64,000 bases of DNA, from NCBI GenBank assembly GCA_035477115.1, contig DATIKW010000039.1, positions 19,405-83,404 on the forward strand, written 5' to 3'. The stretch is from Bacillota bacterium. Its GTDB lineage: Bacteria > Bacillota > Sulfobacillia > UBA995. How positions within the stretch are numbered: position 1 is the first letter of the stretch; the number at the start of each line of letters is the position of its first letter. The notes beneath the pieces were generated by a model. The model was not told where the DNA came from. It made no database searches and saw nothing but the letters and a program-made list of their open reading frames with translations. Shown piece by piece: positions 16,909 to 64,000 of this stretch. The translations under genes were made by a program, and so were the position numbers.

Positions 16909-17008
16909 CCATCCCCCTTGCTCCTATCGACTATCTCGGCCTATCTCAATTCAGGGAGATGGGGCCCGCCTTTCCATGCACCCGGCACCCCGAACGCATA
17001 TGCGGGTC

Positions 17009-33713: not shown

Positions 33714-33738
33714 CGCGGACCCACGGCCTCGCCGCCGC

Positions 33739-37838: not shown

Positions 37839-37854
37839 GCATCACACCTCCGCT

Positions 37855-48664: not shown

Positions 48665-49837
48665 TCAGAACAGGGTCGCTTCTTCGATCAGTTGCCCGGC
48701 GGCGAAGCGCTCGAAGCCATAAGGACTTGCGTCCAGCTCCCGGTAGCCGCCGTGGTGGATCAGGTCGGCCAGCGCCCGCCCGGCAGCCGGGGCCTGCATC
48801 ATGCCGTGACCGGAGAAAGCACCGATCAAGTAGAACCCGTCAAGGTCGGGATGGGCACCGATGATGGCGTTGTGGTCGTGATGGTTGACCTCATACAGCC
48901 CCGCCCACAGGCGATCGAGGGACAGCCGGTCAAGCAGCGGCATCCGCTCGGCCAGCACCGGCCACACCTCATCGAGGAAGTAGTTGCGGTCGGTCTGGAA
49001 GTCGAAGCCGGGCGCGGCCGACTTGTCGGACTTGCCCACCAGGATACGCTTTCCCGCCTCGCTGCGGAAGTATAGCCCGCTCGGGTCGACGATCATGGGG
49101 AGCGGGTAGTCGAGTTCCCCGGGGACAATACAGGTGAAAAGCTGGCGGCGCAGCGGCTGTACCGGCACCTCCACCCCCGCCATGCCCCCGATCTCGCCCG
49201 CCCACGGGCCCGCGGCATTGACGATCACCGGCGCGTGGACCTCGCGGGAGGCGGCAGTCCGCACCCCGGTCGCCTTGCTGCCCGACCGCAGTATCTGCAC
49301 CACCTCCTCGTGCAGGTACTGAACTCCCAGCGACTTGGCCTTCGCCTCGTAGGCGGCCATCACCGCGTAGGGATCGAGGTAGCCGTCCCGGGAGCAGTAA
49401 CTCGCGCCGGCGATCCCCTGCAGATCGAGGTGAGGCACGCGCTCGAGGATGGCTTCGGGTGGCAGGAACGAGACCTCCACCCCGAGCGACTGCTGGAGGC
49501 ACATGCGCTCGCGCAGGGCCGGCAGTGCTTCCTCGGTGACGAGTACGAGGTAACCGCGCTGCCGGAACTCGATGTCCGGCTGGTGTCCGCGGACTTCCAT
49601 GGCCGCGCCGAACTGCTCGTACCGGCGGATGCTGTACGAACTGAAGCGGATATTCGCCGGATGGCCGAACTGGTGGCGAACCCCTCCGGCGCTCAGCCCG
49701 GTCGAGCCATACTGATGCACGGGGTCGCGCTCGAACACCACGATCTGGCCGGTGAATCCCGAAGCGGCCAGACTGTATGCGGTAGCCGAACCCATCACGC
49801 CGCCGCCGATGATCACGACATCGCGAACCAAAGCCAT
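48665..49837 (-). CDS. FAD-dependent oxidoreductase (DAO family: glycine/sarcosine/D-amino-acid oxidase-like)
   Basis: VVIIGGGVMGSATAYSLA dinucleotide-binding motif and a C-terminal AFSGHGMMQAPAAG segment. Confidence 0.8.
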   Translation of the reverse strand: MALVRDVVIIGGGVMGSATAYSLAASGFTGQIVVFERDPVHQYGSTGLSAGGVRHQFGHPANIRFSSYSIRRYEQFGAAMEVRGHQPDIEFRQRGYLVLVTEEALPALRERMCLQQSLGVEVSFLPPEAILERVPHLDLQGIAGASYCSRDGYLDPYAVMAAYEAKAKSLGVQYLHEEVVQILRSGSKATGVRTAASREVHAPVIVNAAGPWAGEIGGMAGVEVPVQPLRRQLFTCIVPGELDYPLPMIVDPSGLYFRSEAGKRILVGKSDKSAAPGFDFQTDRNYFLDEVWPVLAERMPLLDRLSLDRLWAGLYEVNHHDHNAIIGAHPDLDGFYLIGAFSGHGMMQAPAAGRALADLIHHGGYRELDASPYGFERFAAGQLIEEATLF

Positions 49838-49872: not shown

Positions 49873-50799
49873 TCAAGAAGGGCGGGGTAACAGCCCCGCC
49901 TCCTCGACGATGCGCGGGACCATCTCCTCCCACATGATGGCCATGATGTGCACGCCGGCGACGCCGGGGATCCGCCGCAGTTCCTGGATGGCTTCCACGG
50001 CGATCTTCACCCCTTCCTCCGGCTGTTTCTTCCGCTCGACCCCTTTCATTCGGGCCAGCAGGGGTTCCGGCACGACCATGCCCGGGACGGTGCTCATGTG
50101 GCGGAGGGCGCCGAAGGACTTGGCGGGGCAGATGCCTCCCAGGATGTAAGTCTTCCGGTCGAGGCCCGCCTCGCGGACCATCTCCATCCACCGGGCGAAC
50201 CGCGGCAGGTCGAAGATGGCCTGGGTCTGGATGAAGCGGGCTCCCGCCGCCACCTTCTTGGCCAGCCGGCGAACGCGGAAAGCGAACGGCTCGGCGAACG
50301 GGTTCTCCGCCGCCCCCACGAAGAAACGAGGCCGGTGCTCGGCGGCGATGGCCTCCCCGTTCTGAAAGACCCCGGGATCCCCGAGGTCCCGAGCCATCTT
50401 CACGAGCTGCACCGAATCCAGGTCAAAGACGTTACGGGCCGCCGCGTGATTGCCGAAGGACTGATGGTCGCCGGTGAGGCACAGGAGATTGCGGGCGCCC
50501 AGGCTGTATGCTCCGAGGAGGTCGCTCTGCATGGCGATCCGGTTGCGGTCGCGGCAAGTCATCTGGATGATCGGCTCGCCCCCGGCCGCCAGGACATGGA
50601 CGGCGGCGGCGATGCTGGACAGGCGGACGATGGCCGTCTGGTTGTCGGTGAGGTTCTGCCCGTCGGTCACGCCCTTGAGCAATGCGGTGTGATGGCGGAT
50701 GCCCTCGGCCTCCGCTCCCTGGGGCGGCCCCACTTCCCCGGTGACGGCGAAGTGTCCCTGCTCCAGCAGACGCTCCAGCCTGCTCCGCTCGGCGCTCAT
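49873..50799 (-). CDS. metF: 5,10-methylenetetrahydrofolate reductase, acetogen-type catalytic subunit
   Basis: MSAERSRLERLLEQGHFAVTGEVGPP...TCRDRNRIAMQSDLLGA..., an MTHFR TIM-barrel. Start trimmed to the ATG at 50799 behind GGGAGGA; overlaps the metV stop. Confidence 0.85.
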   Translation of the reverse strand: MSAERSRLERLLEQGHFAVTGEVGPPQGAEAEGIRHHTALLKGVTDGQNLTDNQTAIVRLSSIAAAVHVLAAGGEPIIQMTCRDRNRIAMQSDLLGAYSLGARNLLCLTGDHQSFGNHAAARNVFDLDSVQLVKMARDLGDPGVFQNGEAIAAEHRPRFFVGAAENPFAEPFAFRVRRLAKKVAAGARFIQTQAIFDLPRFARWMEMVREAGLDRKTYILGGICPAKSFGALRHMSTVPGMVVPEPLLARMKGVERKKQPEEGVKIAVEAIQELRRIPGVAGVHIMAIMWEEMVPRIVEEAGLLPRPS

Positions 50800-51452
50800 A
50801 GGGCGACGTCCTCCCTGACCAGCTTGCGCGGGCCGCCGTCCCTGGCCCGGGACCAGTCCTTGGCCGGCAGCACCACGTCGAGGAGATCGAGGCGGCCGAG
50901 TCCCTCCAGTCGATCGTGTATCTTCTGCCAGGCGCACTCGATCGCCTCGTCAATCTCGCATTTGCCTTGCTGGGAGCCGCCGCAAGGCCCATTGAGCAGG
51001 CTCTTGGAACAACGGATGATCGGGCAGATCCCCCCGGTCAAGTGGAGCACGCAGTCGCCGCAGAAACCGCACCGCTCCTCCCACACGCCGGGCTGGCGGG
51101 CGCCGCCGCCGAAGCGGGTGTCCACCGCCGGGAACACCCAGGTGTGCGGGTAGCGTTCGGCCAGGAACTGCGCCCCCACGCCGCAGGCCATCGATATCAG
51201 ACAGTCGGCTTCCCCGGCCAGGGCGTCCAGGGCTTCCAGGAACTCCCCGTCGCACTGCCGGGTCAGCACGATGGTGCCCAGCTCGAGGTCGGGGCGTGCC
51301 AGGAGGAGGAGATCCCGCAGCAAAGCGACTTCCTTCTCACCGCCGGCATGGCAGACGGTGACGCATTCCGAGCAGCCGGCGATCACCGCCCGGCGGCGCC
51401 CCGCCAGGTTCTCCAGGATGGCGGGCAGGGGTTTGCGCTCGCAGACGATCAA
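50796..51452 (-). CDS. metV: MetV (zinc-ribbon/Cys-rich MTHFR-associated subunit)
   Basis: Cys-rich 218-aa protein (CSECVTVCHAGG...CGFCGDCVLHLTGGICPIIRCSKSLLNGPCGG...). Sits immediately upstream of metF, as in the Moorella hdr-mvhD-metVF cluster. Confidence 0.75.
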   Translation of the reverse strand: MIVCERKPLPAILENLAGRRRAVIAGCSECVTVCHAGGEKEVALLRDLLLLARPDLELGTIVLTRQCDGEFLEALDALAGEADCLISMACGVGAQFLAERYPHTWVFPAVDTRFGGGARQPGVWEERCGFCGDCVLHLTGGICPIIRCSKSLLNGPCGGSQQGKCEIDEAIECAWQKIHDRLEGLGRLDLLDVVLPAKDWSRARDGGPRKLVREDVAL

Positions 51453-51474
51453 CGCTTTCCCTCCTCCGAGCCTG

Positions 51475-52311
51475 TCAGTATTCGGCCGGCATCTGCCGGA
51501 GTTGCTCGTAGCTGAAGACCGGGCCGTCCTGGCAGACGTAGCGGGAGCCGATGTTGCACCGCCCGCACTTGCCGATGCCGCACTTCATGCGCATCTCCAG
51601 GGTGGTAATGACCTGGTCCGGGGTGAAGCCCAGTTTTTCGAGATCCTGGAGCACGAACTTGATCATGACCGGCGGCCCGCAGGTGACGGTGACGGCGTTT
51701 TCCGGCCGGGGCGCCAGCTCCCGGAGCACCTGGGGCACGAAGCCGACGCGGCCCTGCCAGGAAGCATCGCCCCGGTCCACCGTTACCTCGAGGGCGAGGT
51801 CGTCCCGCTGCCGCCACCGCTCGAGTTCCCACTTGAAGACCAGATCGCCGGGGCTGCGCGCCCCGTAGATGATGCTGACCGCGCCATACCGGTCCCGGTT
51901 GGCCGGGTCCAGCACGAAGGTGATCAGCGAGCGGAGGGGGGCCAGGCCGATGCCGCCGGCGATGAACACCACATCCTTGCCTTCCATCTCCCGGTAGGGG
52001 AAGTGGTTGCCGTAGGGGCCCCGGATCCCGAGATAATCTCCCGGCCGGGCGTGATGCATGGCCGTGGTCATCACCCCGGCCCGCTTCACGGCGAATTCCA
52101 GGTAACCTTCCTGGGTCGGCGACGAGGTGATGGATATGGGAGCCTCGCCGACCCCAATCACCGATACCTCGGCGAACTGGCCCGGCTCGTACCGGAATCC
52201 ATCCCGCACCTCCGGTTCGGCGAAGGCGACGCGGAAGGTCTTGACGTCCTGGGAAGCGGTCTCGGGGATGACCTCCTGGATGACGGCCAGGTGAGGCAGG
52301 TACGGATTCAA
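51475..52311 (-). CDS. FlxA/HydG-like NAD(P)H:FAD oxidoreductase subunit with C-terminal 2Fe-2S (sulfhydrogenase gamma / NfnA-like)
   Basis: FNR-like FAD/NAD-binding fold (FIAGGIGLAPLRSL) and a C-terminal CGIGKCGRCNIG cluster motif. Start trimmed to the TTG at 52311, immediately after the upstream stop and 7 nt after AAGGGGG. Confidence 0.75.
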   Translation of the reverse strand: MNPYLPHLAVIQEVIPETASQDVKTFRVAFAEPEVRDGFRYEPGQFAEVSVIGVGEAPISITSSPTQEGYLEFAVKRAGVMTTAMHHARPGDYLGIRGPYGNHFPYREMEGKDVVFIAGGIGLAPLRSLITFVLDPANRDRYGAVSIIYGARSPGDLVFKWELERWRQRDDLALEVTVDRGDASWQGRVGFVPQVLRELAPRPENAVTVTCGPPVMIKFVLQDLEKLGFTPDQVITTLEMRMKCGIGKCGRCNIGSRYVCQDGPVFSYEQLRQMPAEY

Positions 52312-53333
52312 GCTCGCACCCCCTTGAGCTGGTCGAGGACCGAGCGGAGGTCCACGTTGGCCGGACAAATCTCCACGCAGCGGCCGCAGCCGACGCAGGC
52401 CGGGCGGCCCCGGCGCTCCGGGTAATAGCAGAACTTGTGCATCAGCCGCTGGCGCATGCGCTCCTTCCCGGTGGTGCGCGGGTTATGGCCGGAAGCGTGG
52501 AGGGTGAAGGCCGGGAACATGCACGAGTCCCAGCGCCGCCAGCGCCGGCCGTCCTCGTCGCCCACGTCGAAACAGTGGCAGGTAGGACACAGATAAGTGC
52601 ACGCGGCACAGCCCAGGCAGCGTTCGTGCAGCCGATCCCATAGCGCGTGCTCGAAACCCCGGGCCAGCGTCGCCTGAAGGTCGACGGGGGGCGAGCCCGC
52701 CAGTCGTTCCCGGGCGCGGGCCGCGACGGCCTCCGCCGCCGCCTGCTGCTCCGGCCGGGCGGGCGGGAGCCCCAGCGGCTCCGTCCAGGCCCGACCCCGC
52801 TCGGTCAGGGGGCGCACCAGGTAGCCGCCGTCCACGGGCACCAGCAACACGTCCAGGCCTTCCTCGCCCAGGGGGTCGCCGCCCGCCGCCGGGCAGAAGC
52901 AGGCCGGGCCGGGCCGGTCGCACCCCAGCCCCACCAGGGTGGCCGCTTGCCGCCGGCCCGCCCAAAGGCCATCGACATGCGGGGGTTCCTCGAACACCGG
53001 ATCGAGCAAGGCCAGCGCCCGGGCGTCGCACGGCCTCACCCCGAAGACCACCATGGGCTGGCCGGAGGGTTCGGCCGGTTGCAGCCGGGGGACGCCGTCC
53101 ACCGTCGCGTAACCGAACAACACCTCGGCGCGGGGGAAGAACACTTCCTTGAGCGTGCGGCGGGTGGGACCGGCTTCCCGGTCGAGACACAGTCCGGGGC
53201 GGTAAGGGATGAAGCCCGAATCCTCGCCCCGTCCCGCCGCCACCCAGGTCGGGCCGCGCTCGGCGGAAGCCGCCAGGACCGCAGGCAGCTGGTCGCGAGT
53301 CAGGAAGACCGCCATGGCAGGCCTCTCCTTCAT
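52308..53333 (-). CDS. FlxB/HydB-like 4Fe-4S iron-sulfur subunit (sulfhydrogenase beta / AsrA-like)
   Basis: CFCPAAGG, CLGCAACTYLCPTCHC and CVGCGRCVEICPANVDL cluster motifs. Start trimmed to the ATG at 53333, which overlaps the upstream stop (ATGA) behind GGGAGGAG. Confidence 0.7.
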   Translation of the reverse strand: MKERPAMAVFLTRDQLPAVLAASAERGPTWVAAGRGEDSGFIPYRPGLCLDREAGPTRRTLKEVFFPRAEVLFGYATVDGVPRLQPAEPSGQPMVVFGVRPCDARALALLDPVFEEPPHVDGLWAGRRQAATLVGLGCDRPGPACFCPAAGGDPLGEEGLDVLLVPVDGGYLVRPLTERGRAWTEPLGLPPARPEQQAAAEAVAARARERLAGSPPVDLQATLARGFEHALWDRLHERCLGCAACTYLCPTCHCFDVGDEDGRRWRRWDSCMFPAFTLHASGHNPRTTGKERMRQRLMHKFCYYPERRGRPACVGCGRCVEICPANVDLRSVLDQLKGVRA

Positions 53334-54268
53334 AGGATGAACTCCTCCCGGTCGTCCGGTCGGAAACTGCCGACCAGGGGGCGCGCCTCCGGGTCGACTC
53401 CCGGGCGGTGGTCGAAGCGTTCGGCGGCCTCCCGCTCCAGCGCCAGGTGGAGGTGACGCAGATCGACGCCCACCGGGCACGCACGGGCGCAGGCGCCGCA
53501 GTCGACGCACCGGCCGGCCAGGTGCATGGCCCGGACGAGATGGAATAGCATCGCCTCCGACGGGTCGGCGGTCGGCCCCAGCAGGGCCGGGGCGGTACGG
53601 TCGGCGAAGCACTCCGCGCAGACGCACATGGGGCATGCCTGGCGGCAAGCATAGCAGGCGATGCACCGTTCGGCCGCCTGCCGGAACTCCTCCCGGCGCT
53701 GCTCGGGCGAAAGGGCGGTCCGCGCGTCGAGCCGTGCGAAGCGGTCGCCTTCGGGAGGGGCGGGCGCCTCGGGCGCCACCCAGTATATCCCGGGATCAGG
53801 CAGCCGGCACCCCTGGCACGCCGGGTCCCGCACTTCCACCCAGGGAAACTCCTCCTGCCAACCGTCCCCCACCACGACCAGGCGGTCGCCGGCCAGGCGA
53901 CCCTCGCGGATCACGCGGTCGGCCAGGCGGGAGGCGAGGGCGCGCCGGGAGATCATGCCCGAACACGGCAGGCCGATGGCCAGCACCCGGTCGCGGGCAA
54001 TCCGATTTTCCCGCACCTGTTCCACCAGCGTCCGGGCTTCGCAGGGCCGGGCGGCCAGCGCCACCCGCTCTTCCTTGAGGCGCCCGAGATATCCGGACAG
54101 GTTATGGTCGCAAGTGGGATCATACACCAGCCGCTCGGCATCCCCCGGCTCCCTGGCGAACAGGGGCGTGGTCCGCAAGGGCAAGGTCCCCCGCTCCCAG
54201 CCCAGCACGAGTTGAACCGTGCCCTCCGCCAGCAGTCGGGCCGCCGTTTCCCGCAGGTTCGCCGTCAA
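53330..54268 (-). CDS. FlxC-like 4Fe-4S iron-sulfur subunit
   Basis: Track ORF 53330..55030 trimmed to the TTG at 54268, which overlaps the mvhD stop (TTGA). C-terminal CIACYACRQACPMCVCAEC and CVDCGACARACPVGVDL ferredoxin motifs. Confidence 0.6.
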   Translation of the reverse strand: MTANLRETAARLLAEGTVQLVLGWERGTLPLRTTPLFAREPGDAERLVYDPTCDHNLSGYLGRLKEERVALAARPCEARTLVEQVRENRIARDRVLAIGLPCSGMISRRALASRLADRVIREGRLAGDRLVVVGDGWQEEFPWVEVRDPACQGCRLPDPGIYWVAPEAPAPPEGDRFARLDARTALSPEQRREEFRQAAERCIACYACRQACPMCVCAECFADRTAPALLGPTADPSEAMLFHLVRAMHLAGRCVDCGACARACPVGVDLRHLHLALEREAAERFDHRPGVDPEARPLVGSFRPDDREEFIL

Positions 54269-54711
54269 GGACAGGATGCTCGCCCCGCTTTCGACAGGAA
54301 TCCCGCCGGCCCCAGCGCCTTCACGTCGCCGACGACCTTGCGGATGACATCGGCGAACTTCTGGCCCTCGGCCGCCGAGACCCAGGAGAATTGCACCCGC
54401 TGTTCCTCCATCCCCACCTGTTCCAGGAGCCGCTTGAGCAAGGCGAACTTGCGCCGCGCCACCAGGTTGCCCGCCAGGTAGTGGCAATCTCCGGGATGAC
54501 ACCCCGAGACCAGCACGCCATCCGCCCCTCGCTGCAAGGCTTTCAGGATGTAGATGGGGTTGACCGCTCCGGAACACGGTACGCGCACCACCCGGACATT
54601 GGGCGGGTACTGCAGGCGGGATATGCCCGCCAGGTCGGCCCCGGCGTAGCTGCACCAGTGGCACAGGAAGGCGACGATCTTCGGTTCCCAGGTCGCACTC
54701 GCCGCATTCAT
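54265..54711 (-). CDS. mvhD: MvhD/FlxD-like hydrogenase iron-sulfur (2Fe-2S) subunit
   Basis: KIVAFLCHWCSYAGADLAG...VVRVPCSGAVNPIYILKALQRGADGVLVSGCHPGDCHYLAGN, the canonical MvhD motif set. ATG at 54711 overlaps the hdrL stop (ATGA). Confidence 0.8.
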   Translation of the reverse strand: MNAASATWEPKIVAFLCHWCSYAGADLAGISRLQYPPNVRVVRVPCSGAVNPIYILKALQRGADGVLVSGCHPGDCHYLAGNLVARRKFALLKRLLEQVGMEEQRVQFSWVSAAEGQKFADVIRKVVGDVKALGPAGFLSKAGRASCP

Positions 54712-57700
54712 AGGAGCGCCGCCACCTCCGCCAGGATCTGTTCCTCGGTGAAGCCGCGGAGCACGATCGCGCCACACCAGCAGGTGGCGGCGCAGGCCCC
54801 GCAGCCCTTGCACAGCGCCTTCTCCACCGCCGCCTTGCCCCGGGCCGGGTCGAGTTTGATGGCCGAGTACTGGCACACGCTCTCACAGGTGCGACAGCCG
54901 CCGCAGCGGGCCTCGCGAACCTCGGCCACGGCCCCTCCGGCCTCGATCGAGTCGCGGGCGATGACCGTAGCCGCCCGGCCCACCGCCGCCAGCGCCTGGG
55001 CCATGCTCTCGGACAAGGTCTTGGGAGCATGGGCCAGCCCCGCGACGAAGACCCCGTCGGTGGCGAAGTCGACCGGTCGCAGTTTGGCGTGGGCCTCGAG
55101 GAAGAAGCCGTCGGCGTTCAGCGGCACTTTGAGCGCCTGAGCTAGTTCGCGGGCGTCGGGCCGCGGGGCGATCCCCGAGGCCAGCACCACCAGGCCCGCC
55201 GGGATGCGCACCGGCATGCCCAGCAAGTCGTCGGTGACCGTCACTTCCCGCCGCCCGTCTTCGCCGGCGGCCACCCGGGGGGGATCATCCTCCGTGTAGC
55301 GATAGAAGATGACGCCCGCCTCCCGCGCCTCGCGGTACTGCTCTTCTTTCAGCCCATAGGTGCGGATGTCGCGGTGGATGACGTGGACCTCGCGCCGGGG
55401 ATCGAGCGCCTTCAACGCCAGGGCATTCTTCACCATGTGCGAGCAACACACCCGGCTGCAGTACGGCCGTTCGGGAGTACGCGACCCCGCGCAGCCGATC
55501 ATGACGATATCGCCCTCCGGCACCCGTCCCCCGGCCAGCGCTTCTTCCAGTTCGAGTTGCGTGATCACCCGGGGGTCAGTGCCGTAGCCGGTATCGGAGG
55601 GCACGGCCGGGAGGGCGCCGGTCGCGACCACCACCACCCCGTGGCGCACGGCGACCTCACCCTCCGGCGTGGCCAGGAGGGTCTCGAAGTTGCCCACAAA
55701 GCCTTCGATGTTGCGGACACGGGATCCGGTGTGCACGGTCACCAGCGGGTGGGTCTTGACCGCCTCGATGGTCCGGGCCACCAGGGCGGGCACATCCTCG
55801 CCCTCCAGCGTCCGGGTCAGCCGGCGGGCCTGCCCTCCCAGCTCGACCTCGCGCTCCACGAGGCCTACCGGGTAACCCTGCCGGGCGAAGGCGAGGGTCG
55901 CGGTCAAGCCGGCCATGCCGCCCCCGATCACCAGCGCGGCCCGCGTCACCGGGACAGGCACCCGGTACAGCGGTTCCAGGTGGCGGGCCTTGGCCACCGC
56001 CATCGCCAACAGGTCGCGGGATTTGGCCGTGGCGGCGTCGGGATCGTGCATGTGCACCCAGGAACACTGGTCGCGGATGTTGGCCATCTCGAACAGGTAA
56101 GGGTTCAGGCCGCCCTCGCGGATGCTCTGCTGAAATAACGGCTCGTGGGTCCGCGGCGAGCAGGAAGCCACGACCACCCGATTGAGGTCGTGCTCCTCGA
56201 TGAGCTGCTTGATGCGGTCTTGCGTGTCTTGCGAGCAGGTGTACAGGTTGTCCTCGACATGCACCACGTACGGCAGACCGCGCGCAAAGTCGGCCACTTC
56301 CTTGACCCGGACGACGCCGCCGATATTGATGCCGCAGTGGCACACGAACACGCCGATCCGGGGCGGGCGGTTGGCCACGGCCCGCTCGAGGGGGTACTCC
56401 TTGTGCCGGACGAGTTCGCCGCGGCTGGAGGCGAGCACCGTCCCCGCTTCCGCGGCGGCGGCGCTGGCCTCCACCACCGTCTCGGGTATGTCCTTGGGGG
56501 CGGCGAAGGGGCCGGCCACGAGGATGCCGGGACGGGAAGTGCAAGTCGGCTTCCCGGAGGGGGTGCGGGGGAAACCGTGCCGGTCGGTGCTGATCCCCAG
56601 CCGCTCGACCAGTTCGACCATGGCCGGTTCCGGCCGCATGCCCACCGACAGCACCACGAGATCGAAGTCCTCCCGGGCCGGCCGGCCGTCTTCCCCGGCA
56701 TAATGCACGGTGAGGTCCCCCGGGGCGCCGCCGGCTTCTACCGCCTCCACCCGGCTGCGTACCAGGCGCACCCCGTACTCCCGCTGGGCGCGGTTCAGGT
56801 AGTGCTCGAAATCCTTGCCGTAGGCGCGCATATCCATGTAGAAGATGCTGATCGCCAGTTCCTCGGCCGAGTGCTCTTTGGCGATGACCGCCTCTTTCAG
56901 GGCGTACATGCAGCACACGGAGGAGCAGTATCCCTCGCCGTGCCGGAGGTCCCGCGAGCCGATGCATTGCAGGAAGGCGATGCGCCGCGGGACCTTGCGG
57001 TCCGACGGCCGCACCACATGCCCGTCGTAGGGCCCGGAGGCCGACAGGATCCGCTCGAACTCCATGCTGGTGACGACATTGGGGTGGCGCCCGTAGCCGA
57101 GCGGTACGAGGTCCTCCGGGGCGGTGGTGGCGAAGCCCGGACACAGGATGACCGCCCCTACCTTCAACTCGACCTCTTCGGGCGCCATGTCGTGGACGAT
57201 GGCGCGAGCCTGGCATACCCGCTCGCACTCCCGGCACTCGGCGCAGACGCCGCAGTCCAGGCAGCGCCCAGCCTCGGCCATCGCCGCCTCCTGGCTCAGC
57301 CCGAGTTCCACTTCCCGAAAGTCGCCTCGGCGGGCTACGGGATCGAGTTCCGGCATGGCCGCGCGCGGCGCCCGTGCCTCACCCCACGGCACCGGCCCCA
57401 CGGCCGGGGCCGGGACGGGCCGAGCGGCGATCGGGATCTCTCCGTCCAGGTGGCGGCGGATGGAGGCGGCGGCCCTGCGGCCGGCGGCGATGGCTTCGAC
57501 GGCCGTGGCCGGACCGGTCACCGCGTCGCCGCCGGCGAACACACCCGGGCGGGCGGTGGCGAGCGTCTCCGGGTCGGCCGCCAGGTTGCCCCACCGGTCG
57601 GTCATCCCCGGCGGGGCGAAGGCGGTGTCCGGCGTCTGACCGATGGCGACGATCACCTGGTCCGCCTCGAGGGTGAAGTCGGAGCCGGGCACGGGCACCG

Positions 57701-59111
57701 GCCGGCGCCGGCCCGAGGCATCGGCCTCGCCTAGCTGCATGCGGAGGCAGCGCAGGCCCTGCGCCTGACCTTCGCCCAGCACGGCGGCAGGCGCGGTGAG
57801 GAACCGGAACTCGATCCCTTCCTCCTCGGCGGCCGCCACCTCGTGGGCTGCGGCCGGCATCTCCCCCCGGGACCGGCGGTACACCACGGTGACGCTGCGG
57901 GCGCCCAGGCGAAGGCTGCTGCGGGCGGCGTCGATGGCGACGTTGCCGCCGCCGATCACCAGCACCTGCCGGCCCACGGTCACCGGCTCGCCCAGGTTGA
58001 CCTGCCGCAGGAACTCCACCCCGGATACCACGCCCGGGACATCCTCGCCGGGCACGCCCAGCTTCTGATCCCGGTGGGCCCCGACCGCCAGGAATACCGC
58101 CTGGTAGCCGCCGGCGGCCAGATCGTCCAGGGTGAAGTCGCGGCCCAGAGCTGTCCCGGTGCGGATCTCCACCCCCAGGCGGGCGATCTGATCGATCTCC
58201 GCCCGCAGGATGTCCCGCGGCAAGCGGTATTCGGGGATGCCCACGGTCAACATCCCGCCGGCTACCGGCAAGGCCTCGAACACGGTCACGGGGAAGCCGT
58301 CGAGGGCCAGGTAATGGGCACAGGTCAGTCCCGCGGGGCCGGAGCCCACCACCGCCACCCGTTCCCGGCGCGGCGCGGAACATTCGGGCAAGGCGATTTC
58401 GCCGGCATGCTCGAGTTCATAGTCGGCAATCATCCGCTTCAGCGGGCGGATGGCCACCGGTTCGTCGAGTAGCCCGCGGCGGCATGCCGCTTCGCAGGGG
58501 TGGTGGCAGACCCGGCCGCATACGGCGGGGAAGGGGTTATCGCGCTTGACCAGAGTCACGGCTTCCTGGAACTTGCCGGCGGCGATCAGGGCGACATACC
58601 CCTGGGCATGCACCCCCGCCGGGCAAGACACCTGGCACAGGGGCCGGTCGGCCTTGTCGATGGCGAAGGCATTGGGGTAAGCCTGGGGGAAGGGCCGGAA
58701 AATGGCCTTGCGCAGGTTGAGCCCGCCCTCATACTCGTTGGGCAGCCGGACCGGGCACTCTTTCTCGCAGTCGCCGCAGCCGGTGCAACGCGCGAGATCG
58801 ATGTACCGGGGCCGGCGCCGCACCCGAACGGTGAAGTTGCCCGGCTCGCCGGCGATGTCCAGCACTTCCGAACCGGTGAGCGTCTCGATGTTCAGGTGGC
58901 GGCCGCACTCCACCAGCTTCGGCGACAGGATGCACATGGCGCAGTCATTGGTCGGGAAGGTCTTGTCCAGCCGGGCCATGGTCCCGCCGATCGAGGGCGA
59001 CTTCTCTACCAGGTAAACGTAGAAACCGGACTCGGCCAGGTCCAGGGCGGCCTGCATCCCGGCGATGCCGCCTCCTACCACCAGGGCCGCGCCGGTCACG
59101 CCGCCGCTCAT
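54708..59111 (-). CDS. giant HdrA-family fusion (HdrL-like): HdrA module + GltD/NfnB-like NAD(P)H oxidoreductase module + ferredoxin + second HdrA module, 1467 aa
   Basis: Module 1: GGGIAGMQAALDL (FAD), CTGCGDCEKECP, CQVSCPAGVHA, CGRVCHHPCEAAC. Module 2: VAVVGSGPAGLTCAHYL ... VIGGGNVAIDAA (GltD-like). Ferredoxin CLDCGVCAECRECERVC. Module 3: VFVCHCGINIGGVV, ALVIGGGMAGLTA, CAGSRTPERPYCSRVCC, C-terminal CGGCRTCESVC...CKGCGACAATC. Confidence 0.85.
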   Translation of the reverse strand: MSGGVTGAALVVGGGIAGMQAALDLAESGFYVYLVEKSPSIGGTMARLDKTFPTNDCAMCILSPKLVECGRHLNIETLTGSEVLDIAGEPGNFTVRVRRRPRYIDLARCTGCGDCEKECPVRLPNEYEGGLNLRKAIFRPFPQAYPNAFAIDKADRPLCQVSCPAGVHAQGYVALIAAGKFQEAVTLVKRDNPFPAVCGRVCHHPCEAACRRGLLDEPVAIRPLKRMIADYELEHAGEIALPECSAPRRERVAVVGSGPAGLTCAHYLALDGFPVTVFEALPVAGGMLTVGIPEYRLPRDILRAEIDQIARLGVEIRTGTALGRDFTLDDLAAGGYQAVFLAVGAHRDQKLGVPGEDVPGVVSGVEFLRQVNLGEPVTVGRQVLVIGGGNVAIDAARSSLRLGARSVTVVYRRSRGEMPAAAHEVAAAEEEGIEFRFLTAPAAVLGEGQAQGLRCLRMQLGEADASGRRRPVPVPGSDFTLEADQVIVAIGQTPDTAFAPPGMTDRWGNLAADPETLATARPGVFAGGDAVTGPATAVEAIAAGRRAAASIRRHLDGEIPIAARPVPAPAVGPVPWGEARAPRAAMPELDPVARRGDFREVELGLSQEAAMAEAGRCLDCGVCAECRECERVCQARAIVHDMAPEEVELKVGAVILCPGFATTAPEDLVPLGYGRHPNVVTSMEFERILSASGPYDGHVVRPSDRKVPRRIAFLQCIGSRDLRHGEGYCSSVCCMYALKEAVIAKEHSAEELAISIFYMDMRAYGKDFEHYLNRAQREYGVRLVRSRVEAVEAGGAPGDLTVHYAGEDGRPAREDFDLVVLSVGMRPEPAMVELVERLGISTDRHGFPRTPSGKPTCTSRPGILVAGPFAAPKDIPETVVEASAAAAEAGTVLASSRGELVRHKEYPLERAVANRPPRIGVFVCHCGINIGGVVRVKEVADFARGLPYVVHVEDNLYTCSQDTQDRIKQLIEEHDLNRVVVASCSPRTHEPLFQQSIREGGLNPYLFEMANIRDQCSWVHMHDPDAATAKSRDLLAMAVAKARHLEPLYRVPVPVTRAALVIGGGMAGLTATLAFARQGYPVGLVEREVELGGQARRLTRTLEGEDVPALVARTIEAVKTHPLVTVHTGSRVRNIEGFVGNFETLLATPEGEVAVRHGVVVVATGALPAVPSDTGYGTDPRVITQLELEEALAGGRVPEGDIVMIGCAGSRTPERPYCSRVCCSHMVKNALALKALDPRREVHVIHRDIRTYGLKEEQYREAREAGVIFYRYTEDDPPRVAAGEDGRREVTVTDDLLGMPVRIPAGLVVLASGIAPRPDARELAQALKVPLNADGFFLEAHAKLRPVDFATDGVFVAGLAHAPKTLSESMAQALAAVGRAATVIARDSIEAGGAVAEVREARCGGCRTCESVCQYSAIKLDPARGKAAVEKALCKGCGACAATCWCGAIVLRGFTEEQILAEVAALL

Positions 59112-59599
59112 GTCGTCTCCCCCACCTCGGCGAACAGTCGCTTGAGGTTGCCCGGATCGGGAGGGCCGGCGGCCGCTTTATCCCGCGCCAGGGCGCGCGC
59201 CGCTCCCAGCCTCAGTTGCTGAGCCAGATCGTCCATGGCTTTCAGCCGGGCGGGGAAAGACGGGTGCACGTAGCCGCGTTCGACGGCCAGTTCCCGGAGC
59301 ACGCCCATGACATCGGTGAACTTCACATCCTGAGGGCAGCGGGCATAGCAGGTAAAGCACAGCGTACACAACCAGATCAGGTCGGAGGTCAGCACGTCCT
59401 CCTCCAGTCCCAGGAGCACCATGCGGATGATGCGCCGGGGATTGTAGGCGCCGTCCACTTCCGCCACCGGACAGCCGGCCGTGCACACCCCGCAGCCGAA
59501 ACAAGCCTTGATGGCCTGGCCCCCGGGGCGCGCGGCCACCTCGTACTTGAACCTGGGGCTGACCAGCCGGGCGGGACTCGCGCTTGCCGCCGCCTTCAT
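59108..59599 (-). CDS. hdrC: HdrC-like 2x[4Fe-4S] subunit
   Basis: CFGCGVCTAGCP and CTLCFTCYARCP motifs. Trimmed from track ORF 59108..59965 to the ATG at 59599 behind GGGGGAGGGG; overlaps the upstream stop. Confidence 0.8.
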   Translation of the reverse strand: MKAAASASPARLVSPRFKYEVAARPGGQAIKACFGCGVCTAGCPVAEVDGAYNPRRIIRMVLLGLEEDVLTSDLIWLCTLCFTCYARCPQDVKFTDVMGVLRELAVERGYVHPSFPARLKAMDDLAQQLRLGAARALARDKAAAGPPDPGNLKRLFAEVGETT

Positions 59600-59985
59600 G
59601 ACCCCTCCCCCTTCCCGATGGCGTCCACCTGCCGCCGCATCTCCCGCGCCGCCCGAGCCAGGCGGGCCGCGCCCGCGGGTGAGGCGAACTCCAGCCGCAC
59701 CCTGGCGGGGTCCACCCCGGCTTCCTTCAGCAATCCGCGCAGGTATTCGATCCGGCGGCCGGCCACCAGGTTCCCCTGCAGGAACTCGCACGCCTCTTCG
59801 AAACACCCTACTACCATCACGCCGGCATAGCCCCGGGTGAGGGCGCCCGTCACATGCAGGACGTCGACCCTGCCCGAGCAGGGCACGGGGGAGAGCGTCC
59901 AGCCCGGCGGCCAGAAGCCGCCGGCCTCGGCCTCCTCGACGGCCCGCAAGGCGGAACGTTCGCATACGAAAGCCAGGAGCTTCAT
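59596..59985 (-). CDS. MvhD-like iron-sulfur subunit, divergent second copy
   Basis: AFVCERS...PVPCSGRVDVLHV...VVGCFEEACEFLQGN, a variant MvhD motif (GCxxxxCxF instead of GCHPGDCHY). 129 aa. Confidence 0.7.
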   Translation of the reverse strand: MKLLAFVCERSALRAVEEAEAGGFWPPGWTLSPVPCSGRVDVLHVTGALTRGYAGVMVVGCFEEACEFLQGNLVAGRRIEYLRGLLKEAGVDPARVRLEFASPAGAARLARAAREMRRQVDAIGKGEGS

Positions 59986-61157
59986 GCCGTCACCCCCAGC
60001 CGGCCGTATATCGCTTCATCGGTGGAGGACTGGATGGTGATGGCCAGCGCCGGACAGGCGGCGGCACACACCCCGCAGCCGCGGCAGGCGGCCGGGTCGG
60101 GGACGGCCACCACCAGGATCCCGGCCGGATCGGGTTGGATGGCGATCGCCCGGTGCGGGCACAGCCGTACGCAGGTGAGACATCGGGCACAACGCTGTCC
60201 GTCCACCCGCGCTCGGGCTTCCTCCGCCGGCTGCCGGAGGAAGGCGGCGACCGCGGCGGCGGCCGCCCGACCGTCGCCCAGGCACCCCTCCAGGTCGAGG
60301 TCGGCCCGGAGACTGCCGGCGAGGAAGATGCCGGGCCGAGGACTGCGGCTCCCAAGGCGCACATTGGCCCGGGCGGGCCCGAGGTCGATGCCTTCCCCCC
60401 GCGGCGCCTCCCGCTCGTCGATGGCCGCCAGGTCGAGGGTGACGCCCACCGGCAGTCCGTCAACCCCTGCCTCGAGGAAGAATGAGTCGCCGTCGTCTTG
60501 GAGCTTCAGGGGGTGCGCCCCTTGCTTGAAGAAGGTAACGCCCAGGTCGCGCGCCACCCGGTACCGGGCATCCAGACCGTCGCCGGCCACCCGCAGGTCC
60601 CGGCCGAACCAGGTGACCTCCGCCGCGAAATCGCGTCGCGCGGCAATGGCCAGGTTGAGGGCGGCCGCATGCTGGCGGCGGCTATCGGCGGCCGAGCCGT
60701 CGAGGAAGAGGCCGATGCGGCGGCCGCGCAGGCGGGCGATGGCGGTTTCCGGCCGGCCCAGCAGCTCGGCCAGCATCGACAAGCCGAGCACGCGAGGGCC
60801 CGGCTTCAAGCCGTGCGCCTCCGGCACGGGTATCCGCTCCACCCCCATGGCCAGGACCACGGCACGGGCCTCGCCCGGCCTGCCGTCCAAGTCTAGCTGG
60901 AACCGGCCCGGTCCGCCCCGGACGGCGCGCAGCCGGGTGCCGGGCAGCACCTCGACAGGGCTGAGATCTCCCTCCAGTTCGGCCAGCAGGCGGCGGTCAT
61001 CCGCCGGCGACCCGAGGTACCCGGGGAGGCTGCGCAGGGTGCCGCCGAGGGTGGATTTCGCCTCCGCCAGGGCGACCTGATGGCCCAGGCGGGCCAACGC
61101 GCCGGCGCAGGCCAGGCCGCTGGCGCCGCCGCCCGTGACGAGGATATCGGCCTTCAT
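59982..61157 (-). CDS. HdrA-like FAD oxidoreductase with C-terminal 2x[4Fe-4S] ferredoxin (half-HdrA, C-type)
   Basis: ADILVTGGGASGLACAGALA FAD motif; C-terminal CARCLTCVRLCPHRAI and CRGCGVCAAACPALAI. Start trimmed to the ATG at 61157 behind GGGAGGTG. Confidence 0.7.
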   Translation of the reverse strand: MKADILVTGGGASGLACAGALARLGHQVALAEAKSTLGGTLRSLPGYLGSPADDRRLLAELEGDLSPVEVLPGTRLRAVRGGPGRFQLDLDGRPGEARAVVLAMGVERIPVPEAHGLKPGPRVLGLSMLAELLGRPETAIARLRGRRIGLFLDGSAADSRRQHAAALNLAIAARRDFAAEVTWFGRDLRVAGDGLDARYRVARDLGVTFFKQGAHPLKLQDDGDSFFLEAGVDGLPVGVTLDLAAIDEREAPRGEGIDLGPARANVRLGSRSPRPGIFLAGSLRADLDLEGCLGDGRAAAAAVAAFLRQPAEEARARVDGQRCARCLTCVRLCPHRAIAIQPDPAGILVVAVPDPAACRGCGVCAAACPALAITIQSSTDEAIYGRLGVTA

Positions 61158-62170
61158 CCGACCTTCACCTCCCAGCGAGCGGCCGCGCCGGCCGCAGCCG
61201 CGGTCGCGGCAGCCCGACCGTGAGCAATGCTGTCGGCCAGGGTGCGCGGTTTCTGGCAGCAACCGGCCAGGAACACCCCCGGCCGGGACGATAGCCAGTT
61301 GGCGCCGGGTTGGCCGGCGAAGAAACCGGCGGCATCCAGGTTGATCCCCAGCGCCCGGGCCAGGGCCGGGGCGTCGGGGCGCGGCCAGATGCCTACGGAC
61401 AGGACCACGCCGTCGAATGCCTCGCGGCTCACGGCCGCCTGGCGGACATCGTCGTACACCAGCGTGAGCCGGCCGTCCGCTTGGCCGACCCGGGCGGGTA
61501 TCCCCTGGACCAGCCGGATCTTCTCCCGCGCCTGCTCATACAGGTTGTGGGTGATGCGCCCGGCGGTCTGCAGGTCATTATAGAAAATGCTGATTTTGAG
61601 GTCAGGGCGATCGACCAGCAGGCCGAGCGCCAAGCGCAACGCGTAAGGACAACACACCTCCGAGCAGTAGTCCCGGCCTCGCGCCGGGCAGCGCGAGCCC
61701 ACACACTGCACGAAAGCGAGTTGCCCCCCGGTCGGCGGCTCGCCCCTCCGGACCGCCTGCTCCAGGTCGGTGCCGGTCAGGACGCCGGGCAGCCGCCCAT
61801 AGCCCAGGTCGGGCCATTCGGCGGCGGGGGCCGGCGTCATCCCCGAAGCCACGATGATCGCCTCGGCCTCCAGGACGCCGTCGCTCAACTCGACGCGAAA
61901 TGCGCCCGGCCGACCCTCCAAGGCCTGGAGGGTCGTGCCCGTCCGCACGGTGGCGGCGGATGCGGCGAGTTCCTCCCGGAGATCGGACACGAGGCACACG
62001 CCGCAGTGCAGGCAGCGGTCGGTGGCCTTGCAGGCGTAAGCAATCGCCTGGCCGCCGAGCCGTGGTTCGCGCTCGACCAGGATGACCTCACAGCCCAGTT
62101 GGCCGGCGGCGACGGCGGCAGCCATCCCCGCCACGCCTCCTCCTATCACCAGTATCCTCTCAGCAACCAA
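61154..62170 (-). CDS. HdrA-like FAD oxidoreductase (half-HdrA, N-type)
   Basis: ILVIGGGVAGMAAAVAAGQLG, CLHCGVC and CVGSRCPARGRDYCSEVCC (the HdrA CSxVCC-type motif). Confidence 0.7.
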   Translation of the reverse strand: MVAERILVIGGGVAGMAAAVAAGQLGCEVILVEREPRLGGQAIAYACKATDRCLHCGVCLVSDLREELAASAATVRTGTTLQALEGRPGAFRVELSDGVLEAEAIIVASGMTPAPAAEWPDLGYGRLPGVLTGTDLEQAVRRGEPPTGGQLAFVQCVGSRCPARGRDYCSEVCCPYALRLALGLLVDRPDLKISIFYNDLQTAGRITHNLYEQAREKIRLVQGIPARVGQADGRLTLVYDDVRQAAVSREAFDGVVLSVGIWPRPDAPALARALGINLDAAGFFAGQPGANWLSSRPGVFLAGCCQKPRTLADSIAHGRAAATAAAAGAAARWEVKVG

Positions 62171-62200
62171 GGCGCGGCCCCCTTCCGCGGCAATTCCCGT

Positions 62201-62968
62201 TCAATCCGAGGTACGGCCGTCCGTCAAGCCCGCCCGAGCGGCGACGGCCCGGACCGCCTGCAGGGCGGCCGAATCCGCCGGCAGCCGGGCCAGCGGTTCC
62301 CCATGGAGGTCGAGGTCGGCCACGTCCCGGTCGTCGGGGATGAAACCGCCAACTTCTAGACCGGTCGCCGCGATGGCATCCTCCAGCGGACGCCGGTCGA
62401 TCACCCGGTTGACCACCAGCCACACCCGACCCGGCTTCAACCCGATCTCGTCGACCAGTTCCCGGATGCGGCCGGCCGTGCGCAAGCCCCGGACGGTGGC
62501 GTCGCTCAGCACGAAGGTCATGTCCATGTCCTGCGCCACGCGGCGCGACAGATGCTCCATGCCCGCCTCGTTGTCTACGACCAGGAAGTCGTAGTCGCGA
62601 GCCAGCGCCCCCAGGTGGTTGCGGATGAGGTCATTGGGGAAGCAGTAGCAGCCGGGCCCTTCGGGCGTGCCCATGCTCAGGAGGTCCAGCCGCGGCGTCT
62701 CCACCAGCACCGAGCGGAGCCGGTATTCGATGAGCTGGCTCTTGGGCATGCCGGCCGGGGGAGGTCCGGGAGCCTTCACCTCCTCCAGCACGTCGGCCAC
62801 CGTCCGGGGGACGGCGATCCCCAGCGCCTCGTGCAAGTTGGAGTTGGGGTCGGCGTCCACGGCCAGGATGGTGCCCCCGGTCCCTTCCTGCAGGGTCCGG
62901 ATGAGCATGGCGGCGAAGCTCGTCTTGCCGGTGCCGCCCTTGCCCGCGATCGCTACCCGTACGGGCAT
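62201..62968 (-). CDS. cooC: CooC-type Ni-insertion ATPase (CO dehydrogenase maturation factor), copy 1
   Basis: MPVRVAIAGKGGTGKTS deviant Walker A, and the CYCFPN Cys motif typical of CooC/AcsF. Start trimmed to the ATG at 62968 behind GGGGAGGGA. Confidence 0.85.
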   Translation of the reverse strand: MPVRVAIAGKGGTGKTSFAAMLIRTLQEGTGGTILAVDADPNSNLHEALGIAVPRTVADVLEEVKAPGPPPAGMPKSQLIEYRLRSVLVETPRLDLLSMGTPEGPGCYCFPNDLIRNHLGALARDYDFLVVDNEAGMEHLSRRVAQDMDMTFVLSDATVRGLRTAGRIRELVDEIGLKPGRVWLVVNRVIDRRPLEDAIAATGLEVGGFIPDDRDVADLDLHGEPLARLPADSAALQAVRAVAARAGLTDGRTSD

Positions 62969-62970
62969 CG

Positions 62971-63756
62971 TTACTCCCTCCCCGGGGTCTCTCCCATCAT
63001 CTCCAGCACCCGCCGGCCCACTTCCTGCACGTCGGCCCACAGTTCGGGAGCGGCGACCGGCGGCGGCCCTCCCGGCCCGGCGATGGACCGTTCCAGCACC
63101 GCTTCATCGTGGCGGAGATGACCGAGGACCTCGATGCCGTCCAGGCGTGACTCCAGGAAAGCCCGTTCGGCGGCGTTGCGGAGCTTGTTGCCTACGACCG
63201 CTACCCGCGGGATGCCCAGGTCGGCCGCAAGGCGGGCGATGGTCCCGGCGGACTTCACGCCGGCCGGGCTGGGCTCACTGACGATGATCAGGAGGTCAAC
63301 GCCGCGGGCGGTACCCCGGGTGAAGCCCTCAATCCCCGCCCCCATGTCCATCACCACCTGGTCCTGTCTCCCCAGGAACAACGCGGTGACCACGGCTCGC
63401 AAGAAACTGGCCTCGCTGCAATAACATTCGCTGCCCCCCGGCTTCACCGCCCCCATGCGCAGCAGCCGGATGTTGCCGTGCCGCACCGAATAGCGGTCGA
63501 GCAGGTCGTCGACCCGGGGATTCAACACGAAGAACAGGCCGCTGCCCGCCCGGTCCTTGACGACCTCCTGCATCTCGATCAGCGGGACCAGACCATCGAG
63601 CGACGCGGGTGGGAAACCGAGGGCGAGACCCAGGCTGGCATCGGGGTCGGCGTCGACCGCATACACCTGATAGCCCTGACCGGCGAGGAACAAACACAAT
63701 CCCGCAGCCAGGGTGGTCTTCCCCGAACCGCCTTTTCCGCCGATGGCCAGTTTCAT
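62971..63756 (-). CDS. cooC: CooC-type Ni-insertion ATPase, copy 2
   Basis: MKLAIGGKGGSGKTT, and the ECYCSEASF Cys motif. Confidence 0.85.
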   Translation of the reverse strand: MKLAIGGKGGSGKTTLAAGLCLFLAGQGYQVYAVDADPDASLGLALGFPPASLDGLVPLIEMQEVVKDRAGSGLFFVLNPRVDDLLDRYSVRHGNIRLLRMGAVKPGGSECYCSEASFLRAVVTALFLGRQDQVVMDMGAGIEGFTRGTARGVDLLIIVSEPSPAGVKSAGTIARLAADLGIPRVAVVGNKLRNAAERAFLESRLDGIEVLGHLRHDEAVLERSIAGPGGPPPVAAPELWADVQEVGRRVLEMMGETPGRE

Positions 63757-63837: not shown

Positions 63838-64000
63838 TTAAGTCTTCGGCAAGGCGCGGATGAGAGCGGACAGGGCATCGCCCGCCACCCCCGCCAGGTC
63901 CTCCGTGGCCAGGTGGGCGGGCGCGGTCGCGTCGAACAATACGTTGCCGGCGGGTCCCGTCACCGCGTCGCCGCCCCACAGGACGAAGGCCACCGGCAGC
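63838..64000 (-). CDS. 3' end of an unidentified gene continuing beyond the window (C-terminus ...LPVAFVLWGGDAVTGPAGNVLFDATAPAHLATEDLAGVAGDALSALIRALPKT*)
   Basis: Own translation of the minus strand with a TAA stop about 63838-63840. Absent from the track because it lacks an in-window start. Sits directly upstream of the cooC pair, so a Wood-Ljungdahl/CODH-associated function is plausible but not demonstrable from 54 residues. Confidence 0.4.
   Translation of the reverse strand, partial: LPVAFVLWGGDAVTGPAGNVLFDATAPAHLATEDLAGVAGDALSALIRALPKT

Follow-up and report, generated by a model that had tools for sequence, protein, structure and literature searches.

Gene Content and Layout of the Cluster

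The DNA analyzed here (hereafter, the window) is a stretch of 64,000 nucleotides (nt) from a Bacillota bacterium of the Sulfobacillia lineage (assembly GCA_035477115.1, contig DATIKW010000039.1, positions 19,405 to 83,404), whose genome was deposited with generic annotation. From position 63756 down to 49873 on the minus strand, it carries 13 intact open reading frames (ORFs) in the order cooC1-cooC2-hdrAa-hdrAb-mvhD1-hdrC-hdrL-mvhD2-flxC-flxB-flxA-metV-metF (Table 1), each with a GGAGG-like ribosome-binding site 5' of its start. Eleven of the products are redox proteins, including both subunits of a methylene-tetrahydrofolate (methylene-THF) reductase, MetV and MetF, together with an HdrA-type fusion protein, HdrL, and a set of subunits of the Flx type; no HdrB accompanies them. 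The original prediction, made from the letters of this region, had described a 14-gene operon that merges two known families of electron-bifurcating gene sets around MetVF.

Table 1. Genes of the cluster in order of transcription (minus strand; window positions; aa, amino acids; E, expect value). The last column gives the position of the 4-nt overlap with the next gene.
Gene	Position	Strand	Product	Overlap with next gene
cooC1	62971..63756	-	261 aa, CooC/AcsF-type Ni-insertion ATPase; Pfam CbiA E 2e-16	
cooC2	62201..62968	-	255 aa, second CooC-type ATPase; Pfam CbiA E 8e-15	
hdrAa	61154..62170	-	338 aa, TTG start, short HdrA	61154/61157
hdrAb	59982..61157	-	391 aa, degenerate HdrA-like flavoprotein with C-terminal 2x[4Fe-4S] ferredoxin domain	59982/59985
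mvhD1	59596..59985	-	129 aa, MvhD/FlpD [2Fe-2S] protein; PF02662 E 7e-28	59596/59599
hdrC	59108..59599	-	163 aa, HdrC-like 2x[4Fe-4S] protein; no HdrB gene after it	59108/59111
hdrL	54708..59111	-	1467 aa, HdrA+GltD fusion	54708/54711
mvhD2 (flxD)	54265..54711	-	148 aa, MvhD [2Fe-2S] protein; PF02662 E 2e-55	54265/54268
flxC	53330..54268	-	312 aa, TTG start, FdhB/FrhB-like Fe-S protein	53330/53333
flxB	52308..53333	-	341 aa, HydB/AsrA-like Fe-S protein; PF17179 (Fer4_22) E 6e-31	52308/52311
flxA	51475..52311	-	278 aa, TTG start, HydG/AsrB-like diaphorase subunit (FAD + NAD(P)H + [2Fe-2S])	
metV	50796..51452	-	218 aa, TTG start, Fe-S subunit of MetVF methylene-THF reductase; PF12225 E 2e-35	50796/50799
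metF	49873..50799	-	308 aa, catalytic flavoprotein of methylene-THF reductase; PF02219 E 3e-36	

Nine junctions are 4-nt start/stop overlaps, seven of the ATGA and two of the TTGA type, and the others are gaps of 2 nt (cooC1/cooC2), 30 nt (cooC2/hdrAa) and 22 nt (flxA/metV). The prediction had placed all nine overlaps correctly while counting eight of them, and had set the remaining gaps at 30 bp or less, as measured; its third overlap type, GTGA, does not occur. The overlap pattern is also kept in one related metagenome locus. Consensus scans of the cluster gave one promoter site against 0.8 expected from shuffled sequence and three terminator sites against 5.6 expected, all three inside cooC1, and neither kind of site was found at any gene boundary, with the low power that such scans have at the GC content of the window (about 68%). 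The overlaps, the short gaps and the lack of any excess of internal signals support the 13 genes as one operon-like unit, as predicted. The interval holds 13 genes, not 14: a fourteenth same-strand gene, for a DAO-family flavin adenine dinucleotide (FAD) oxidoreductase (sarcosine-oxidase-beta/ThiO-like, 390 aa), lies 35 nt past metF at 48665-49837. No terminator was detected between metF and this gene; it was ruled out as a cluster member because it is not present after metF in related loci.

Searches with Pfam and NCBIfam confirmed every expected domain among the cluster products, so the predicted gene identities stand, including that of a second MvhD (PF02662 was matched twice). No credible transmembrane segment was predicted in any of the 13 products.

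Absence of HdrB

For comparison, we used 42 genome loci anchored on HdrL and three further loci found through hdrAb homologues (L084, L085 and L086). The CCG domain PF02754 was matched in none of the 14 products searched from the window, and no CCG-pattern (HdrB/HdrD-like) ORF occurs anywhere in its 64 kb; the same scan recovers HdrB/HdrD in L002, L010, L011 and L029. Among the HdrL loci, a CCG ORF is found in none of the seven that carry hdrAa and hdrAb versus 29 of the 35 others (Fisher p 6e-5, for loci that are not phylogenetically independent). In L086, an hdrB gene stands at the position that is occupied in the window by hdrL-mvhD2-flxCBA. The cluster therefore fails one defining feature of both the Moorella and the Desulfovibrio complexes, namely HdrB. 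The predicted merger holds insofar as Hdr, MvhD, MetVF and Flx modules are all present, and fails for the HdrB that both references possess. Without HdrB, no disulfide substrate is expected.

HdrL, the Flx Module and MetVF

HdrL contains two HdrA modules, the first aligned at residues 4-153 and 618-841 and the second at residues 913-1467; module 1 is interrupted by a region (residues 156-631) that aligns to NfnB/GltD and would bind reduced nicotinamide adenine dinucleotide (phosphate) (NAD(P)H) and FAD. The match to HdrA of solved methanogen complexes reaches E 1e-190, and that of the NfnB-like domain to 4ylf_B E 2e-102. HdrL has three FAD motifs, a single dinucleotide motif for NAD(P)H, and two E/K pairs, E686/K739 and E1189/K1228. 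In an alignment of HdrL with 120 homologues, E686/K739 are invariant in all 121 sequences, E1189 is kept in 114 and K1228 in 108. The family is very large: at least 8000 scored candidates pass E 1e-20, and the 120 best listed are mostly 1465-1518 aa long. The nearest genome locus belongs to a metagenome-assembled genome (MAG) labelled Symbiobacterium thermophilum, with HdrL 77% identical. The name HdrL itself dates from 2009, and the HdrA of Moorella thermoacetica has been described as a protein of 1487 aa with a GltD insertion, two thioredoxin-reductase-like flavin modules and the E/K pairs E696/K750 and E1204/K1246 (Kremp et al. 2022). Judged by its likeness to this published description, HdrL is a Moorella-type HdrA, a known and widespread protein. 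The 1467-aa fusion had been predicted as an addition to the Moorella scheme, a claim that falls with the same layout and E/K signature in the Moorella protein.

The mvhD2 gene overlaps the hdrL stop codon, and in most of the 42 HdrL loci the gene immediately downstream of HdrL likewise encodes an MvhD. Of the Flx-type subunits that follow, FlxC has two CX2CX2CX3C motifs and resembles FdhB of solved methanogen Fdh-Hdr complexes: 9t1s_M matches at E 2e-26, and 7bkb_E and 8rvu_E match as well, with residues 12-141 and 192-300, nearly the full length of FlxC, in the alignment. FlxB is closest to the beta subunit of Pyrococcus sulfhydrogenase I (9nez_B, E 2e-40). FlxA combines the domains PF00970 (FAD_binding_6), PF00175 (NAD_binding_1) and PF10418 (DHODB_Fe-S), and matches the gamma subunit of the same sulfhydrogenase (9nez_C) at E 8e-68 versus E 1e-13 for NfnA (4ylf_A). 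The cluster ends with metV and metF, joined by an ATGA overlap; MetV is 78% identical to that of L003, and MetF is 59% identical to the Desulfoscipio and 54% identical to the L086 protein.

The Upstream Split-HdrA Set

Upstream of hdrL, hdrC is preceded by a second, split HdrA set of three genes, hdrAa, hdrAb and mvhD1. HdrAa consists only of a thioredoxin-reductase-like FAD domain and a CxGSR...CSxxCC [4Fe-4S] motif. Its best solved relative is sHdrA (6tjr, E 5e-44, residues 5-326), it matches the HdrA2 model at E 8e-53, and of the E/K signature it keeps E (DLEQ) and has R for K (CCPYALR). A metagenome gene caller starts hdrAa 15 codons and flxB six codons later than we do. The later hdrAa start would remove the FAD motif ILVIGGGVAG, given that the alignment to sHdrA begins at residue 5; deposited annotations of both genes may carry the same late starts. 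In HdrAb, the FAD motif reads GGGASG, CX2CX2CX3C occurs twice, and the cysteine cluster motif of HdrA is missing; HdrAb aligns to residues 410-646 of HdrA 9sfi_A, the C-terminal third of that protein, at E 3e-19. It is fused to MvhD in L008 and L086. In the window, mvhD1 is bounded by ATGA overlaps at both ends. HdrC has two CX2CX2CX3C motifs and matches TIGR03290 at E 1.6e-28, which is under the curated (equivalog) cut-off. The original prediction of two half-HdrA genes is right in that the split is real and conserved; the two products are, however, a complete short sHdrA-like flavoprotein and a degenerate HdrA-ferredoxin protein. A frameshift or pseudogene was ruled out as the origin of the split, which is kept with its ATGA overlap in at least nine loci. 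We also considered hdrAa-hdrAb-mvhD1-hdrC as a soluble Qmo-like module (HdrC versus the QmoC N-terminus, E 3e-19) and rejected it because there is no membrane domain, there are no apr or sat genes, and the set is homologous to the metVF-linked genes of L086.

Related Loci in Other Genomes

Roughly a dozen other genomes also carry this gene set, usually beside acs genes. Four loci (L003, L004, L084 and L085) have the order of the window, and a fifth, L005, has the same order without metVF. In L003, L084 and L085, acsB-acsC-(RACo)-cooC-acsD-acsE lies directly upstream, with acsA also present in L084 and the L085 locus beginning at acsC; in L004, acsE is upstream of the cluster. A permuted order, hdrAa-hdrAb(::mvhD)-metV-metF-hdrC-hdrL-mvhD2-flxCBA, is found in Calditrichales bacterium MX18-03 (L008), a member of the Bacillota (L009) and a member of the Oscillospiraceae (L040), with truncated copies in L016 and L021. 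The Calditrichales locus has acsD/acsE upstream, and its hdrAb-mvhD is one reading frame (6460-7827), that is, a fusion. The preservation of the gene set across phyla in shuffled order argues for a functional link among its products. As the five loci of the same order and the permuted loci show, the arrangement is not unique to this genome.

Reduced forms occur in Desulfoscipio sp. XC116, as acsE-hdrL-mvhD-flxCBA-hdrD(CCG)-...-metVF, and in UBA8153 (L010), as hdrB-hdrL-mvhD-flxCBA-metVF. The plain Moorella order hdrC-hdrB-hdrL-mvhD-metVF is found in L011 and L029. L086 (NCBI MAG GCA_964615245.1, 5066-21821) shows yet another form, hdrAa-hdrAb::mvhD-hdrC-hdrB-metV-metF, preceded by acsE, a Mur-ligase-like gene, an extra metV and fhs, and followed by a pair of response-regulator genes, another metF and a histidine kinase gene. 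By blastp, hdrAa, hdrAb, mvhD1 and hdrC of the window match the L086 products at 38-42%, 35%, 30% and 40% identity, respectively. Behind the histidine kinase gene of L086 lies one for a product longer than 1350 aa, in which a cNMP-binding domain is fused to an HdrL-like body.

Comparison with Known Systems

One of the two closest described systems is the Hdr-type (type IV) MetFV-HdrABC-MvhD complex of Moorella thermoacetica (Moth_1191-1196), from Mock et al. 2014 as related in PMC9430772, PMC8578096 and PMC5861303. Shared features are metVF at the operon end, an HdrA of about 1470-1490 aa in which a GltD/NAD(P)H domain is inserted and two flavin modules carry the E/K pairs, mvhD after hdrA, hdrC before hdrA and, in relatives, a position behind acsE. 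The window differs in lacking HdrB, in having flxCBA between mvhD and metV, and in the extra hdrAa-hdrAb-mvhD1 upstream. The other, FlxABCD-HdrABC of Desulfovibrio vulgaris, is an NADH dehydrogenase/heterodisulfide reductase with a proposed output to DsrC via HdrBC (Ramos et al. 2015). Compared by domains and gene order only, it shares a FAD/NAD(P) subunit of the FlxA type, two Fe-S subunits and an MvhD-type FlxD beside an HdrA-type protein; in contrast to it, the window has no HdrB, its HdrA is the HdrL fusion, and MetVF stands as the adjacent catalytic module. Loci of Desulfotomaculum reducens (Dred_0137-48 and Dred_1325-30) likewise encode HdrA, two Fe-S proteins, a FlxA orthologue, MvhD and HdrD, with a large NADH-binding HdrA (PMC4759654).

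The methanogen Fdh/Mvh-MvhD-HdrABC supercomplexes (5odc, 7bkb, 8rvu and 9t1s) are related through the HdrL-HdrA and FlxC-FdhB alignments; in the window, however, the donor would be NAD(P)H rather than H2 or formate, and there is no HdrB, heterodisulfide or coenzyme F420. A split-HdrA hdr-metVF cluster is known from marine Chloroflexi (Sewell et al. 2017, PMC5736913). L086, assigned to this type by gene order alone, has hdrAa, hdrAb(::mvhD) and hdrC homologous to the window genes directly before its hdrB-metVF block; it keeps HdrB where the window has hdrL-mvhD2-flxCBA. The class II benzoyl-CoA reductase BamBCDEFGHI (bioRxiv 10.64898/2026.04.10.717634) provides a precedent for hierarchically coupled, or stacked, bifurcation modules. 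It too is a large soluble assembly, with a catalytic subunit coupled to an NADH-linked module and to a double-HdrA protein accompanied by MvhD; unlike the window system, it uses tungsten catalysis by BamB, a NADH module of the NuoEF rather than the Flx type, and an HdrBC-like BamD. The transhydrogenase NfnAB differs in that the NfnB-like domain of the window is embedded in HdrL, and FlxA is far closer to sulfhydrogenase gamma than to NfnA.

No description of HdrL together with Flx and MetVF, or of an HdrB-less form, was found in full-text searches of the literature, although an earlier mention is possible (e.g., Pereira 2011 or the D. kuznetsovii genome paper), and we found no biochemical study of this gene set. 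Partial precedents are the HdrABC/HdrL of Syntrophobacter and an acetogen MAG of a candidate phylum in which HdrB is "replaced by HydB". The original remark that no description of the arrangement had been seen agrees with these searches; as a gene set, it recurs among deposited genomes, as shown above.

Proposed Function and Alternatives

With moderate confidence, we read the eleven soluble redox proteins as one NAD(P)H-linked, HdrB-less methylene-THF reductase system of the Hdr/Flx type in the Wood-Ljungdahl pathway or, equally well in reverse, a methyl-THF dehydrogenase. FlxA would take hydride from NAD(P)H, and the electrons would then pass through FlxB and the FdhB-like FlxC to MvhD2 and on to HdrL, as FdhB-MvhD feeds HdrA in methanogen complexes. 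The 7bkb structure reportedly contains an input chain FdhA-FdhB-MvhD-HdrA; the analogy of FlxA-FlxB-FlxC-MvhD2 to such a chain is drawn because of this and of the FlxC-FdhB homology, and the gene order hdrL-mvhD-flxC mirrors it. HdrL itself would contribute an NAD(P)H site of the GltD/NfnB type, along with two HdrA-type flavins that bear the E/K signature, a flag of bifurcating flavins. HdrC and the HdrAa/HdrAb/MvhD1 set would provide the connection to MetV and MetF, where methylene-THF would be reduced. In the least secure step, this exergonic reduction by NAD(P)H would probably serve to drive a further pair of electrons onto a low-potential acceptor, for which ferredoxin is the default candidate. 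The redox potentials of NADH (-320 mV) and methylene-THF (-200 mV) form the thermodynamic argument for bifurcation, and bifurcation to ferredoxin in the window system is plausible. The predicted coupling of NADH, a low-potential ferredoxin and methylene-THF is borne out as regards a set of gene products without transmembrane segments in which an NAD(P)H module accompanies MetVF; its ferredoxin is an assumption, and the Moorella complex does not support it.

Several observations weigh against this proposal. According to a review, ferredoxin is not reduced by the Moorella complex, whose second acceptor was never identified; the Hdr-type enzyme of Sporomusa was associated with the membrane and did not accept NADH. 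In methanogen HdrA, ferredoxin is bound by an inserted ferredoxin domain, which HdrL module 2 does not have and which GltD interrupts in module 1. Trios of the HdrL-MvhD-FlxC type are found beside many other partners, which makes them a generic module, and in Desulfobacterota and other groups they are common without metVF. L005 (Firmicutes bacterium UBA3570, 6092-17615) has nine Hdr/Flx genes, hdrAa-hdrAb-mvhD1-hdrC-hdrL-mvhD2-flxCBA, with neither metVF nor acs in the locus; dnaE and a MatE gene flank them at one end, and genes for a PD-(D/E)XK nuclease and a UvrD-type helicase at the other. The Hdr/Flx set can thus stand as a unit by itself. In the window genome, moreover, the acs structural genes (acsABCDE) are not adjacent to the cluster.

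A more specific version of the proposal, which we put forward tentatively, is that the cluster encodes a fifth, HdrB-less class of methylene-THF reductase. The split sHdrA-like pair and HdrL-MvhD-FlxCBA would replace the disulfide site. The enzyme would then have one pyridine-nucleotide site in FlxA and another in the GltD domain of HdrL, with as many as three HdrA-type flavins, and possibly two stacked bifurcation or confurcation steps like those of class II benzoyl-CoA reductase. In that case, the low-potential partner of the acetogen enzyme would be built into or defined by the complex, for example through the use of NADH together with NADPH, or of NAD(P)H to reduce both methylene-THF and ferredoxin.

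The main rival explanation, which we regard as unlikely, is that one operon encodes two enzymes: a reductase made of MetVF, perhaps with HdrAa, HdrAb and MvhD1, and an independent soluble NAD(P)H:ferredoxin or Nfn-like transhydrogenase made of HdrC, HdrL, MvhD2 and FlxCBA, which would only balance redox carriers. The permuted loci do fall into the corresponding blocks, hdrAa-hdrAb-(mvhD)-metVF and hdrC-hdrL-mvhD2-flxCBA, and both blocks nevertheless occur together in every metVF-bearing locus with HdrAa and HdrAb. The absence of metVF from L005 would suit such a division, as would HdrL-MvhD-FlxCBA with HdrBC and no metVF in L006, L007, L018 and L028, the NfnB-like domain of HdrL, and the NfnA/PyrK domain architecture of FlxA. 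Against it, the window and L003, L004, L084 and L085 place flxCBA between hdrL and metVF, joined by 4-nt overlaps or a 22-nt gap, and a Moorella HdrA of the same type was reported in complex with MetFV.

The two other alternatives are less likely. In the first, which we consider doubtful, the Hdr and Flx proteins would be an electron wire from NADH and/or NADPH to methylene-THF, with no second acceptor or energy coupling. No Hdr-type methylene-THF reductase has demonstrated bifurcation in the cited literature, which is consistent with a wire. Short sHdrA-type proteins are regarded as non-bifurcating, and HdrAa is of this type, with R in place of the signature K. However, both HdrL flavin sites keep their E/K pairs, the first of them without exception, and a wire would need far less than eleven redox proteins and their five or more predicted flavin-binding sites; A. 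woodii runs the NADH-dependent reaction with MetFV and one RnfC-like subunit. The other alternative, a membrane-coupled system as proposed for Sporomusa ovata, in which Hdr proteins dock MetVF to a quinone/cytochrome chain and respiration conserves the energy, is very improbable here: S. ovata HdrCBA-MvhD-MetVF was found at the membrane, and H2-dependent methylene-THF reduction was membrane-bound, but none of the 13 window products has a predicted transmembrane helix, no membrane subunit gene occurs in the cluster or the related loci, and the cluster contains a pair of NAD(P)H-binding modules missing from the S. ovata HdrA.

In acetogens and syntrophic acetate oxidizers, the way in which energy is conserved from methylene-THF reduction is still unsettled. 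The variant proposed here, a single HdrB-less Hdr/Flx-type reductase, drops the presumed site for a disulfide and has instead a well-understood entry module for NAD(P)H, similar to those from which HdrA receives electrons in the solved methanogen complexes; the substrates therefore narrow to pyridine nucleotides, methylene-THF and a low-potential carrier, and bifurcation becomes directly testable. Calditrichales bacterium MX18-03, which has the full set, and Desulfoscipio sp. XC116, which has the reduced one, are not labelled as MAGs, so that biochemistry may be feasible without an uncultured source; the former, with every gene of the set, may be a cultured organism.

CooC Genes and Genomic Surroundings

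Two ATPase genes stand at the head of the cluster: cooC1, whose translation shows a P-loop (GGKGGSGKT) and a CYC motif, is Wood-Ljungdahl context and no redox subunit, and cooC2, which likewise has a P-loop and a CYC motif, is 70% identical to the cooC that lies between acsC and acsD in L003. A DUF3786 gene on the minus strand, of which the last 163 nt lie in the window (63838-64000) and the remainder in L083 (6691-7320), stands 81 nt upstream of cooC1. In L086, a member of the DUF3786 family sits within the acs cluster. Beyond DUF3786 follow a 960-aa protein with only a faint alpha/beta-hydrolase match and then pilin-like (N_methyl) and DUF7305 genes. Because these flanks are unrelated to the Wood-Ljungdahl pathway beyond DUF3786, the cluster appears detached from acsABCDE, unlike those of L003, L084 and L085. 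A RACo gene (32094-33761, minus strand) with Fer2, RACo middle and RACo C-terminal domains stands alone, 16 kb from the cluster, between a gene without a Pfam match and one with a Germane (sporulation/germination) domain; in relatives, RACo lies between acsC and cooC.

The window otherwise holds housekeeping genes, and scans of its whole 64 kb found neither a tRNA gene nor an Rfam family at gathering threshold. At 34589-37841 (minus strand), genes for succinyl-CoA ligase alpha and beta are followed by one for malic enzyme; the raw ORFs overlap, and their starts need refining. A tandem PmbA/TldD metallopeptidase pair (5776-8618, minus strand) adjoins a heavy-metal P-type ATPase with two HMA domains (8567-11236, plus strand). 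A 1423-aa subtilase with CarboxypepD_reg and CARDB domains, encoded at 26219-30490 (minus strand), is probably a large secreted or cell-surface protease.

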